From positions 4,245 through 68,244 of the IMG/VR virus record IMGVR_UViG_3300021962_007022: a DNA stretch of 64,000 nucleotides, one strand, 5' to 3'. Below, in pieces: positions 16,901 through 19,389 of this stretch. The notes below the pieces were generated by a model. It was not told the DNA's origin, did no database searches, and worked only from the letters and a program-made list of their open reading frames with translations. Position 1 is the stretch's first letter. Each line of letters starts with the position of its first letter. The stretch is from a virus. The position numbers were made by a program, and so were the translations under genes.

Positions 16901-17407
16901 TGTTACACCAGTAGTTTCAAATACTGTTGATGTTGTTTTTGTTGTTGCATAGGATGTAGCAATGACTGTATCAAATACAGATACTGTATTAAATATTGTC
17001 TGGTAAGCTGTAACATATTGAGATACAGTATTCTTAGATGTAGCAATAACTGTATCAAATACTGAGATATATGCTGTTGTTGTTGATTTAGATGTTGCAA
17101 CAGTTGTATCAGTGGCCTTAGATGTAGAGTAGGCAGTAACAAATGTTGTAGTTGTACCTGTTCCAATATTTGTATTGAATGTTGAAGATACAGTAGTTTG
17201 CGTAGAGTATGCTGTAAGTAGTTCTGTTAATCTAATTTGTTCAATTTGAAAACTTGTCTCAATAACACTTCGTGGTGTCTGTTTTTTAATTTCAACTAAA
17301 GCGTCTGCACTAGGTGCATTGACAAATACAACACTACCACCAGAAATGGTATAATCGGTACCTAGTACCTGCAATACTCCATTTACTTTAACTGTTAGTG
17401 TACTCAT
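10943..17407 (-). CDS. 2154-aa Thr-rich virion fibre candidate: self-complementary beta-hairpin arms around a central Gly-rich (polyglycine, gp38-adhesin-like) domain
   Basis: Long ORF between gp7 and gp8; TxTx[F/Y/K/R]x repeats; central domain ATITAPAGAVSVVIKAWGGGGGG...GGGGGAYVQKT...GADGRVQFIW at ~15215-15885. Confidence 0.8.
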   Translation of the reverse strand: MSTLTVKVNGVLQVLGTDYTISGGSVVFVNAPSADALVEIKKQTPRSVIETSFQIEQIRLTELLTAYSTQTTVSSTFNTNIGTGTTTTFVTAYSTSKATDTTVATSKSTTTAYISVFDTVIATSKNTVSQYVTAYQTIFNTVSVFDTVIATSYATTKTTSTVFETTGVTNKSTTTVYDTTITTIFDSNRTTTTVYSTAYTTVYATETAYETNRNTVYNTNFATETSKSTDTTKATSTVYDTLYASSYGTTTVFNTSKDTNLATSRSTDTTVSTSKATNTTTTFVTIFDTAGSTTRSTTSLYVTVFNTSKSTASVFETAFVTVFNTSKLTSTSKSTTSLFNTSTVFTTVYDTGYNTSKSTTSLFNTSTSFNTSYATNFATTTSFETNIATQTTVSPNTARSTTTIFNTATSVITTTAFGTTTTFNTTYATNFATTTAFDTNILTETNRGTSKATEKTIATSKATATSRSTTTLFNTTTSFDTTTTFGTTTTFDTSYTTTYQTTSTSEQTDTYNSGSATITAPAGAVSVVIKAWGGGGGGGSGMVVGSQGGGGGGGGGGAYVQKTVNVTGGVTQFTYNVGLGGNGFGNPPGAEVDDQFSYADQGGSSTVTGTGVNIDAGAGGGGQNAWPDSSIPANVYAGIGGFGGFASGGDVNTAGTAGNGNQYVGGGAGGAAASGGAGGAGGVDGVNNGNGSAGSAPGGGGGGGSPNTQSNGGDGANGADGRVQFIWTIQSSVNTSRITSAATSRATDTSRATATSKSTATSKSTTTTFNTTTTFNTTYQTTTSYVTGYQTLTIFGTSRGTTTVFDTARSTAAATGTSRNTTSIFDTATSSVTSTTFVTTYLAATTTVFVTSRSTTTIFDTARGTAAVTGTSVATTTAYNTLVATSTSTSKATATSVATTTVFDTTTTFETNFGTARNTSKATDTTFETNFGTSKATDTTFSTLFNTAAATSKSTATTTTFGTAYATTTAYDTIYSTVFETNKTTDTSTATSKSTSKLTASAFQTTTAYNTDTTFETNRNTVFNTVIATDTSRDTVILTSKGTSTIFETAIDTAYNTNKTTTSVFNTVFNTAKNTTSVFDTTIDTAYATNIATATSKFTTNVTNITTSTAFETAYATEIATSKSTSSVFDTAYATSTVFDTGPNTTRNTITQSVYATTSSTLKGTDTSILTEYRIVVTQTLFSTNIQTTYETIAGVLTTISTDILTGRTTDTSFALETRNTLRDTSFQTTNPTLIATTTLFQTSYNTNQVTRYITFSTAYATSKNTSTVFDTATTTVYDTTSAFNTLTVVTSSTSRNTLVTSSTVFDTSRSTIFATGTSRTTTSSYQTNTTTTYDTGYDTNATTTSLFVTAFLTVSTFDTSQVTSRNTTLSKGTEILTFFGTSQATFKPTSVTRQTVYVSNFATVSRTTQFNTSTTETTVFDTKRGTNQTTVFDSSTSFLTSFATTLNKTTTTITGKSTLSHYNTLVGTSKVTDIATSTDTTTSFNTLTGRSTAYNTTKTTQSSLATIFDTVFDSTLATSKSTSTSKSTSTSTSSVITTSYDTAKNTVTHINTTYQTVFQTDSGAGTLKDTSSLITKATAVEKSTVTARLTTIDTTNSTETQYLMSSSFGTETVFETVVGTAYDTTTTFNTQTIFQTSSVFDTTTSFQTDSGAGTLIGTSKTTSTGISTNTNKTTSTTKTTITASGTYFLTSKTTASMYDTTKNTVAGQTIALTSTSKNTTTVYLSEYQSTINTTTSYLSSYSTVIDTSRQTQALTSFGTSKTTETIFQTAAGGGTLFNTTKNTTTAFDTVYLITQSVISTATTFQTDSGGGTLKDTSQNTITRYTRYVSGKQTSTVFTTAFATDPFVTTAYGTSKSTLTVYPTVFTEFGTSKDTLTTSGKSTTTAYNTIYTTGPLTQKATTTAFDTVYSTGLATTRDTATFLTTSTAYVTETARITGSSKITQFATTTTVNTDTARGTSTTFQTDSGAGTLVSTSRNTFTGTITSFNTTTVTISDMLTSKSTATQTNQGTLINTSTSTSYGTETQYTTSSGATVFLTSVNTTTVIDFSIRNTEYQTLTSVETATVFESGDRQTARLTQLLTNTDTSELVIDTTRTTSVATAFDTSTAYLTDFGAGTMVGTSKSTSTSRITDKATDTNYDTAIQTTYETVIINN
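10948..10955 (-). promoter_or_regulatory. T4-type late promoter TATAAATA upstream of gp8
   Basis: Exact TATAAATA on minus strand ~28 nt upstream of gp8 start; gp33 present in window. Confidence 0.65.
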
Positions 17408-19389
17408 GCTCCACCCGGGATAGCAAACGTTGTCGTTGACCCATCCCCTATATATGCTTGCTGTGTAACGTCTGGTGTTGCAGCCGTGACTTCATTACTT
17501 ACAAGAACTCTACCAAACTTCTCAACACCAGCTGGGTGCCAAAGCTTTCTTAGAAGGTCACTATACTTATTGAATACAACTGATGATCTTACTTCATAAG
17601 AATAATCTTGATAGTAATAGCTATCGTGGATGTATTTGTCTGAGTTTAAGAAACCACGAGTTGATTTGAAATTACCTTCACCCTGACCCTGTCTTGTTAG
17701 TAATACAGTACCAGATGTTATTAGGTTTGTGTTGGATAATGAAACAAGAAGAGCTTCTTCTCTTTGTTCATAGCCTAGACCTGAGTCAATAACTTTGACT
17801 TCTCCTAGGGCATCATCGCCAAATCCAGCAACGCCAGTCACAACGGCGTTATTACCAAGATACCCATTGCCACGCGCACCACGACCTGCTGGGTGTTCTT
17901 GATCAGGTAATTCCATTAGTCCTATTACAGTATCTGTGACTGTAATTTGTACATTGGTTGTATAATCCTGGCCAGGATTGGTTGTAAAGATTTTAGATAT
18001 TGTACCAACTTCATAGTTTTGATAGCTCAGGGCATCTCTGAGGATTGTATCAAATCCTGCTGCGACATTTGAAGCAAGACCATAACCATTTCCAGTCGGA
18101 TAGGATAATTCACCAATAAGTGTATTATCGACGTTGTTAGCTGTACCAATATAATTCAATGTTTGGCCAATTGTATTAATTTTTATGGCTGAGGAGAAAA
18201 GATATTTAATATCTGAAAGAGCACCAATTCTCAAACCGGCCTGGTCGCCACCACCTGCAATTGCTGGTACTAGGTTTGCGCCAACACCTGCTGAAGCTCC
18301 ACCAGTTGAATTTGCTATGGTAACTGTGACAGTAAAAGCATTTGTTGTTAAAAATCCATTGCCGCCATTAACGACATTAATATTATTAGCAAGGATTGCA
18401 CCACCGCCACCCAAAGCACCAACTAGGGTTATCGTTGCATTTGCCGTTCCATTTGAACATGTAATAACATCTGTATTGCTATAACCTGAGCCCCCGGCCT
18501 CTACTACAAGTCCTGTTACAGGACCTTTGATTAAGAAAACAGTATTATTAACTGTATAACCTGATCCACCATCTTCTAGATTAAATGAAATTGTACCATC
18601 TAGCTCTTTAAGTTTTGTTACAACTACCTTGCCGCGAGAACCTCTACCTTGTACTTCAAGTATGTCACCAACAGTATAACCAAAAGGCGAGCTTCTATTT
18701 GATACATCAACCTCTGTCATTGAACCAATGATCTTTGGTGAGTTGATTGCTGTTACCGATGGAACTTCACCATCTGGTAGTTTGGACTCATCAATCAGAA
18801 CAACTTCATCATGCCTAAAATTACCAACAACGTCTGTTAGGTAGAATATGTTTATGTTTTTGTTATTAATGTATTTTGTCTGGAAGCTTTCAACATAAGC
18901 TCTTGCACCAGATATACGGCCTCTAATAAATTCACCTACAAACAAACTATTGAATGGCTTATAAGACACTTCAAGATAAATGTCTCTATTCCAATCACCG
19001 TCTGATAATCTAAAGACATCATCACCTGGTTTATATACACTAATGTTGTCAGCAAACAGAAGCTGAAACAAAAGTTTTAGGCCTCGCTCTGTACCCTTAG
19101 AACCATATACTTCTTTAATGTGCTTTTGTAGTAGGACCTTATCACCAGCAATATCTTCTGGGATAGGGAACATATATTTCTTTTTAAAATTATTGATAAA
19201 CACATCTATAGTTTTATCAATGTCTCTATATTCCAGCAATCTTCTGGAATCGTAGACAACTTGGTCTTGAGATTCAAGCCACTCAAAATATGCTTTTACA
19301 AATGCAATGAATAGAGGACCCTCTTCCTTATAGATAGAAGGGAATTGATTAGCTATGAATGGTGATATAAACTTTTCTAATTCTTTCAT
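17404..19389 (-). CDS. gp7: Baseplate wedge initiator (gp7-like)
   Basis: N-terminal ISPFIANQFP..EEGPLFIAFVKAYFEWLE, YGSKGT, C-terminal DSYYYQDYSYEVRS...HPAG; follows gp6. Confidence 0.75.
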   Translation of the reverse strand: MKELEKFISPFIANQFPSIYKEEGPLFIAFVKAYFEWLESQDQVVYDSRRLLEYRDIDKTIDVFINNFKKKYMFPIPEDIAGDKVLLQKHIKEVYGSKGTERGLKLLFQLLFADNISVYKPGDDVFRLSDGDWNRDIYLEVSYKPFNSLFVGEFIRGRISGARAYVESFQTKYINNKNINIFYLTDVVGNFRHDEVVLIDESKLPDGEVPSVTAINSPKIIGSMTEVDVSNRSSPFGYTVGDILEVQGRGSRGKVVVTKLKELDGTISFNLEDGGSGYTVNNTVFLIKGPVTGLVVEAGGSGYSNTDVITCSNGTANATITLVGALGGGGAILANNINVVNGGNGFLTTNAFTVTVTIANSTGGASAGVGANLVPAIAGGGDQAGLRIGALSDIKYLFSSAIKINTIGQTLNYIGTANNVDNTLIGELSYPTGNGYGLASNVAAGFDTILRDALSYQNYEVGTISKIFTTNPGQDYTTNVQITVTDTVIGLMELPDQEHPAGRGARGNGYLGNNAVVTGVAGFGDDALGEVKVIDSGLGYEQREEALLVSLSNTNLITSGTVLLTRQGQGEGNFKSTRGFLNSDKYIHDSYYYQDYSYEVRSSVVFNKYSDLLRKLWHPAGVEKFGRVLVSNEVTAATPDVTQQAYIGDGSTTTFAIPGGA

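Follow-up and report, generated by a model that had tools for sequence, protein, structure and literature searches.

The DNA of an uncultured T4-like phage analysed here, 64 kb of the 68-kb IMG/VR record IMGVR_UViG_3300021962_007022 (hereafter the window; 39.7% G+C, estimated completeness 42%), carries the gene of a gp7-like baseplate wedge protein and, directly after it, that of a very long threonine (Thr)-rich fibre, and a small beta domain with the motif GDGxTTxF...VxVNGxxQxxGxDY is divided exactly at the boundary between the two genes. The explanation that we consider probable is an ancient gene fission, after which the fibre is anchored by inter-chain completion of the split domain. An earlier note on this DNA, made from the letters alone, had proposed that the divided domain is restored either by a -1 ribosomal frameshift or by strand complementation between the two proteins; the second of these options now appears the better supported, as far as can be inferred from sequence. 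Of its interpretation, the division of the domain at the gene boundary and the placing of the fibre on the C-terminus of gp7 have stood, whereas the frameshift has not. The features on which this reading depends are the following, the strands being numbered by motif mapping onto a structural model:

17404 to 19389, minus strand: gp7-like baseplate wedge protein P0001, 661 amino acids (aa), assigned by PF23786, phrog_17744 and its gp6-gp8 position
10943 to 17407, minus strand: Thr-rich fibre P0002, 2154 aa, assigned by Thr content and homology to the repeats of phage DLP6
17404 to 17407, minus strand: ATGA stop/start overlap (TGA of gp7, ATG of the fibre), fibre in the -1 frame
17407 to 17481, minus strand: gp7 C-terminal tail, residues 637-661, GDGxTTxF, putative strands 1-2; positions 8-28 of the intact-domain hidden Markov model (HMM), 10.1 bits
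17273 to 17407, minus strand: fibre N-terminal half-domain, residues 1-45, VxVNGxxQxxGxDY, putative strands 3-6; HMM positions 35-75, 44.6 bits
3515 to 3688, minus strand: intact domain copy in a DUF4815 protein; HMM positions 9-64, 38.8 bits, AlphaFold2 model with six strands

Two half-domains at one gene boundary

The arrangement of the junction is as the earlier note had described it. Both open reading frames (ORFs) lie on the minus strand and have the four bases 17404-17407 in common, the GDGSTTTF motif of gp7 stands 10 residues before the stop, the VKVNG..Q..G.DY motif of the fibre begins at residue 6, and the putative Shine-Dalgarno sequence is indeed poorly spaced, with GGAG ending 1 nt ahead of the fibre ATG. 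Since 4-base stop/start overlaps are found at five other gene junctions within the window, the overlap between gp7 and the fibre is ordinary translational coupling.

The family to which the two halves would belong was collected with a profile of the first 62 fibre residues (alignment A3, 12 sequences), which was searched against 1.84 billion representative proteins and matched 1880 of them at E <= 0.001, mostly with 2-20 tandem copies each. An intact-domain HMM of 82 positions was then built from 400 copies, each cut with the 30 residues preceding it, out of 148 of the 150 best-listed proteins; P0011 and P0015, which are fragments of the fibre of this very phage clade, were excluded. When this HMM was run with filters off on every six-frame ORF of the window (984 ORFs, 65,631 residues), three matches stood out, namely the fibre head, the intact copy and the gp7 tail, the next best reaching 5.7 bits. 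The intact copy that the earlier note had placed in the DUF4815 protein is thus real (P0006 residues ~1724-1781, window ~3515-3688), and the match of the gp7 tail covers residues 637-658 with an i-Evalue of 0.032 for the 984 ORFs.

What carries the argument is the register of the two halves. On the profile the gp7 tail and the fibre head lie next to each other without overlap, and ~4 residues bridge the 6 unmatched loop positions between them. Comparison of alignments by hhalign gave the same picture, as profile positions 16-28 were matched by the gp7 C-terminal alignment (A2, columns 87-99; P 0.001, probability 21%) and positions 35-75 by fibre columns 2-42 (E 1.2e-19). That the two pieces make up one virion domain is borne out by both the HMM of 400 intact copies and hhalign and goes beyond chance.

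Moreover, the fibre head, as the acceptor, is without strands that the family normally has. In 10 of the 11 copies located at a protein N-terminus a GDG-type strand precedes the VNG part, and among the best 150 of the 1880 family matches the only proteins starting with the VNG part are two fragments of the fibre of this clade. Exactly the strands that the fibre head is missing are carried by gp7, a separate polypeptide, where they are conserved and under selection (see below). The eleventh N-terminal copy, that of P0123, was considered as a second, independent split because its domain starts at residue 8; however, the GDG strand is present upstream in the same frame in the relatives of P0123, the best of which sits at a contig end, and P0123 was rejected as a truncated ORF call.

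Conservation of the junction and selection on the gp7 tail

A search of IMG/VR with gp7 yielded 51 loci, 16 of which reach the gp7 C-terminus (68-98% gp7 identity). These relatives are uncultured phages from freshwater, estuary and marine samples, and the split is present in every one of them, with the tail motif, the TGA stop, an overlapping start and a fibre that begins with the VNG half. The start codon lies over the stop as ATGA in 14 and as GTGA in 2, and such an NTGA overlap, kept in 16 of 16 relatives, is as expected for coupled synthesis. In the seven relatives whose locus is long enough, the fibre ORF measures 1699-2251 aa with 32-34% Thr and is followed by a gp8 homologue, whose gene has a near-identical N-terminal start (MLTKFK-type) in all seven. 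The relatives were found at the protein level and in IMG/VR only, as blastn of the junction DNA against the phage collection gave no match.

Together with the window, the relatives provide 14 distinct junction sequences, for which synonymous and non-synonymous codon differences were counted pairwise:

gp7 core, residues 560-631: synonymous to non-synonymous 2177:660
gp7 linker, residues 632-645: synonymous to non-synonymous 271:422
gp7 tail, residues 646-661: synonymous to non-synonymous 384:188

These counts indicate purifying selection on the gp7 tail but not on the linker that precedes it. Within the tail G648, D649, P658, G659 and G660 are invariant, with up to four codons each. Constraint thus returns at the tail, and residues there stay invariant across varied codons, as would not be expected of a useless remnant.

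DNA near-identical to the junction region was also met in estuary, plankton, marine, aquaculture, riverine and freshwater metagenomes (runs X1-X20). Half or more of the sampled junction words were present in 15 rows of these runs, and the full set of matching runs spans 12 studies, which makes the clade a widespread one in surface waters.

Predicted fold of the domain

Modelled by AlphaFold2 from a 30-row alignment, the intact window copy (3443-3745) showed six strands, with a mean predicted local distance difference test (pLDDT) score of 66 and 72-90 in the core. Foldseek found no match for this model at E <= 0.001 (best 0.03). In VIA-align, in which a Z of ~8 is near the noise level of the tool, it aligned with the T7 gp17 chains 8dsp_C (residues 6-77), 7ey9_a (3-86) and 7boz_b (5-86), all at Z 8.7 with a root-mean-square deviation (rmsd) of 2.2-3.9 over 68-80 aligned residues, and with residues 187-250 (XD2) of CBA120 TSP4 at Z 8.5 (rmsd 1.9 over 64 residues). 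Further top rows were chains of the HRP29, P-SCSP1u, LME-1, Kp9 and Carin-1 tail complexes, and fibre or tailspike chains from phage tails make up the majority of the top 13. The models thus point to the attachment-jellyroll fold of the T7 gp17 N-terminus and T4 gp10 XD2-XD3, an assignment that is only probable since such Z values are close to the level of which the tool warns. The intact DUF4815 copy has no Pfam match. Residues 4-56 of the fibre match positions 32-85 of the 157 of PF03906 at 16.7 bits (E 0.0063), under the cut-off of 25.2, and this sub-threshold match agrees with the fold assignment.

The fibre head seems to begin in the middle of this fold. Its first 70 residues were modelled by AlphaFold2 with four strands (pLDDT 85-93 over residues 1-40), and the model meets the same chains later, at gp17 residue ~27 and TSP4 residue 209, compared with gp17 residues 3-6 and TSP4 residue 187 for the intact copy. 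As no chain reached Z 5 with the fibre-head model (3.4-4.0 for these chains, 4.0 at best), the offsets are usable and the scores are not. The late start is consistent with the absence of the first two strands, and a jellyroll complete in one polypeptide is not what was found at the fibre N-terminus, which covers profile positions 35-75 only. Motif mapping would accordingly place strands 1-2 on gp7 and strands 3-6 on the fibre.

According to passages of PMC8825819, XD2 of CBA120 TSP4 is a jellyroll common to T4 gp10 XD2/XD3 that is used for protein-protein attachment, and the N- and C-terminal strands of XD2/XD3 are adjacent and antiparallel, from which it follows that the gp7 strands would pair with the last strand of the fibre.

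The Thr-rich fibre and fused relatives

In the fibre P0002, Thr makes up 34-36% of residues 61-500 and 761-2154, the two repeat regions that were analysed, and recurs there with periodicities of 4, 10, 14 and 18 residues; the fibre belongs to no family in phrogs. Its Thr-rich repeats are interrupted by a glycine-rich domain:

15233 to 15871, minus strand: glycine-rich domain of the fibre, residues 513-725; PF21722 Gly_rich_2, 35.3 bits against a cut-off of 24.3

The earlier note had suggested looking for homologues in which the two proteins are fused, and such homologues exist. In Stenotrophomonas phage DLP6 the core of gp7 (1288 aa) runs directly into Thr-rich repeats homologous to P0002 (BLASTP E 8e-20, 37% over 303 residues, composition-adjusted), and the metagenomic protein P0158 has the same layout of gp7 core and Thr repeats. 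Thr autocorrelation peaks at lags 4, 14 and 18 are common to P0002, the C-terminal part of DLP6 gp7 and P0158, which suggests a common repeating beta unit. Marine T4-like phages provide a second group, with giant gp7 ORFs that extend 115-1139 aa past the core in 19 of 20 loci (L040 ends 12 aa after it); ~100 aa after the core and in the same frame, these ORFs carry a domain with the family motifs, as judged by eye and not by HMM scoring. The family phrog_701 is collinear with the two window genes, gp7 residues 587-633 matching its positions 3453-3499 and fibre residues 4-46 its positions 3595-3637. An undivided, fused state thus exists elsewhere, and because relatives fuse gp7 either to Thr-rich repeats or to an in-frame domain, the fibre belongs on the C-terminus of gp7.

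Two further groups of gp7 homologues were observed. The metagenomic proteins P0164-P0168 have a motif Y/F-x-G-D-x-T-T-F-S-P, closely similar to the gp7 tail of the window, ~25 residues after the gp7 core, followed by hundreds of residues without a VNG half, and hold an intact copy of the domain upstream (residues ~437-512 in four of the five, 115-183 in P0164); their motif could be either a leftover of the domain or a hook to which some other protein attaches. In Caulobacter phage Cr30 (L002, locus 6001-8304) gp7 ends ~36 residues past the core with gp8 directly after it, and its tail resembles a degenerate, truncated domain (G-S-T-G-S-S-A-F, then a hydrophobic strand), which may represent another stage of decay or rearrangement at the gp7 joint.

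Genomic surroundings

The junction lies within a T4-type baseplate module, in which every gene is on the minus strand. P0001 is above the gathering score of PF23786 Baseplate_wedge (33.1 bits, cut-off 27) and matches phrog_17744 at E 4.5e-140. Homologues of gp5, gp6 and gp8 flank the junction, so that the gp6-gp7-gp8 order is present, with the fibre gene inserted between gp7 and gp8. The neighbouring genes are:

19389 to 21188, minus strand: gp6 baseplate wedge protein, upstream neighbour; PF21379, phrog_219 (E 5.7e-164)
8869 to 10920, minus strand: gp8-like baseplate wedge protein, downstream neighbour; phrog_438 (E 2e-73)
3020 to 8857, minus strand: DUF4815 protein P0006, 1945 aa, which carries the intact domain copy
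minus strand: gp5 hub/lysozyme, member of the baseplate module
minus strand: tail protein, phrog_350, member of the baseplate module

Residues 470-527 of the gp8-like protein match tail-fibre phrogs (phrog_1980 positions 6-64, E 2.3e-09). With 2.4 bits in the intact-domain HMM, this internal stretch is an inserted fibre-type module and not the GDG/VNG domain.

Proposed joint and alternative explanations

In the mechanism that we propose, a change of frame in the loop joining strands 2 and 3 would have cut an ancestral fusion of gp7, domain and fibre, and since then gp7 and the fibre would be produced as individual chains whose translation is coupled. Strands 1-2, on the final ~25 residues of gp7, and strands 3-6, on the ~45 residues that open the fibre, would then fold into one inter-chain domain, and this domain would hold the 2154-aa fibre on the baseplate wedge. 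The binding of the gp7 tail to the fibre head and its role as an anchor are inferred.

Several points weigh against this reading. The match of the gp7 tail is short and marginal when taken alone (10.1 bits; hhalign 21% over 13 columns), and the half-domain finds weak structural counterparts at best (Z <= 4.0). AlphaFold2 models the four-strand fibre head confidently on its own, which does not imply a need for the gp7 strands. The GD.TTFSP motif of P0164-P0168 stands right after the gp7 core with no VNG half following, and might hence be a feature of gp7 in its own right. The anchoring joint itself is argued from sequence, and the binding of gp7 to the fibre is a prediction; a complex prediction with the gp7 C-terminus (102 aa) and the fibre N-terminus (120 aa) gave 0.10 against a mark of 0.32, in a run without controls, a value that speaks neither for nor against binding. 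Furthermore, T4 gp7 is present in one copy per wedge, while the gp17 and XD domains act as trimers.

In the main alternative the genes are split without a shared fold, the gp7 tail being a conserved element with another role or a slowly decaying relic, and the fibre attaching otherwise. The motif of P0164-P0168, the marginal profile match of the tail and the confident model of the lone fibre head (pLDDT 85-93) all speak for it. A relic, however, would not give a ratio of 384:188 beside a linker with 271:422 across 14 distinct junctions, tail and head take up neighbouring, non-overlapping stretches of a single profile, the loop between them being in register, and the family almost never occurs without its first strands. 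We therefore regard this alternative as unlikely, though as the main competitor to the completion of one domain by two chains.

The frameshift fares considerably worse. It would take place at the following heptamer and fuse a fraction of gp7 to the fibre, giving a product of ~2800 aa:

17413 to 17419, minus strand: C CCG GGT heptamer, putative slippery site that we consider non-functional; kept in 8 of 16 relatives only

Read in the gp7 frame, the heptamer is of the X XXY YYZ form, as the earlier note had pointed out, and lies 9 nt ahead of the stop. From there the -1 frame is open into the fibre; a fused product would restore the intact domain, and fused forms are known in relatives. The open -1 frame reaches 28 codons upstream of the fibre ATG, which is an unremarkable length (5 to ~31 codons in the relatives). 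Against recoding, CCCGGGT is present in only 8 of the 16 relatives, the others having CCCAGGT (4), ACCTGGT (3) or TCCTGGT (1), and it is destroyed by synonymous changes in the Pro and Ile/Val codons, while the overlapping start codon is kept in all 16 and overlaps of this kind are routine in the window. The motif is also a poor one in Escherichia coli, as passages of Sharma et al. (2014; PMC4066793) class C_CC.G_GG.U and C_CC.G_GG.C as "poor frameshifters" and place the latter under threshold even with the IS3 pseudoknot.

Nor was a convincing stimulator found downstream. The RNAalifold consensus of the 14 junctions was weak (-14.8 kcal/mol over 115 nt, covariation -2.0, 4 of 30 pairs compensatory) and contained a single compact hairpin, ~38 nt downstream. 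No homopolymer that could serve transcriptional slippage is present at the junction. Taken together, these observations make a programmed frameshift highly improbable. The hairpin corresponds to the palindrome GGTAC-nnn-GTACC at 17343-17355 (minus strand, fibre codons ~18-22), has one compensatory variant, in L015, and is probably incidental.

The lambda G/GT type of frameshift likewise has a slippery-form heptamer near the end of the upstream tail gene and a downstream frame of -1. Unlike there, the heptamer of the window is poor and non-conserved, and a conserved start codon of its own belongs to the fibre gene. A heptamer that looks slippery and stands at an overlap into the -1 frame is thus insufficient evidence for recoding.

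The weakest alternative, a sequencing or assembly indel that broke a single gp7-fibre gene and of which a one-base frame difference inside a domain would be the classic signature, is practically negligible, as all 16 related contigs, which are independent of one another, show the same frames, with gp7 identities down to 68% and 14 distinct junctions, and as Logan contigs from four runs of four studies span the junction without inserted or deleted letters. The latter, which come from two DNA and two metatranscriptome libraries, are contigs and not raw reads, so that rare variants or a minor fused genotype are beyond their reach, and those of the RNA libraries may derive from DNA carry-over and are no proof of transcription. 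At the level of contigs, the indel error that the earlier note had wanted ruled out by read mapping is thereby excluded.

Implications

How peripheral fibres are fixed to gp7 is poorly known in many T4-like phages that lack the gp10/gp11/gp12 set of T4. Here the sequence points to a specific joint, in which ~25 residues at the end of gp7 and ~45 at the start of the fibre would make up one known attachment fold. If true, fibres of 1699-2251 aa could be exchanged on a constant gp7 hook, and it would be explained why the same fibre is covalently attached in DLP6 and separate elsewhere. The joint would also be a clear case of a protein domain that survived division between two genes and could provide a natural split-domain tag pair, i.e., a small pair of complementing peptides.

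The components are of known kinds, comprising gp7, an attachment module of the gp17-N/XD type and coupled overlapping genes. For an attachment module divided between a platform protein and a fibre, we found no description in the open-access literature searched by listing, and none of strand complementation in phage fibre attachment when titles and the beginnings of abstracts were searched. What could be new is an obligate two-chain domain that arose by fission inside a ~65-residue fibre-attachment jellyroll, with two strands on gp7 and four on the fibre, which would serve as the sole non-covalent "click" joint of a ~2000-aa fibre and would be stable across the clade; for this full form of the proposal we see about equal grounds for and against.

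Comparison with known systems

The closest structural counterpart is probably the N-terminal domain of T7 gp17 (PF03906; 7boz, 7ey9, 8dsp), which according to the models shares its small beta fold with the intact window copy (aligned to gp17 residues ~3-86 at Z 8.7, near the noise level given above) and forms the tail-proximal end of the fibre, as stated in the entry titles of 7boz and 8dsp. In T7 the whole domain is part of one chain at the fibre N-terminus, whereas in the window its first two strands would be on the platform protein gp7, and the platform is a myovirus baseplate wedge instead of a podovirus adaptor/nozzle. In T7 the gp17 domain has a docking role.

A similar comparison applies to the XD2/XD3 modules of T4 gp10 and CBA120 TSP4, which, like the proposed joint, mediate contacts of fibres or tailspikes to the baseplate (PMC8825819). 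These modules are complete domains that bind via trimer surfaces, while the window domain is divided, and the passages of that source dealing with them describe no XD module split between two proteins.

Among the relatives of gp7, DLP6 (KU682439, 1288 aa) and P0158 share the homologous core and the Thr-rich repeats with the window, the core of DLP6 gp7 being 48.7% identical and standing at the same place between gp6 and gp8. They consist of one polypeptide and have no GDG/VNG domain at the joint, where the window clade has two genes and the split domain. The giant gp7 proteins of the marine cyanophage type (phrog_701, phrog_2885, phrog_4406; L028-L046) are like the window in that the core is followed by a domain with the family motifs, but in these the parts are fused, the domain is undivided, ~65-100 additional aa lie between core and domain, and no Thr-rich fibre of the window type is present within the stretch examined.

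As a working analogy, chaperone-usher pili show how the incomplete beta fold of one polypeptide is completed by one or more strands of another. Pilins lack one C-terminal strand, which is supplied by the chaperone or by the next subunit. In the window, by contrast, two N-terminal strands would be supplied by a different structural protein, in an arrangement that would have arisen by gene fission.

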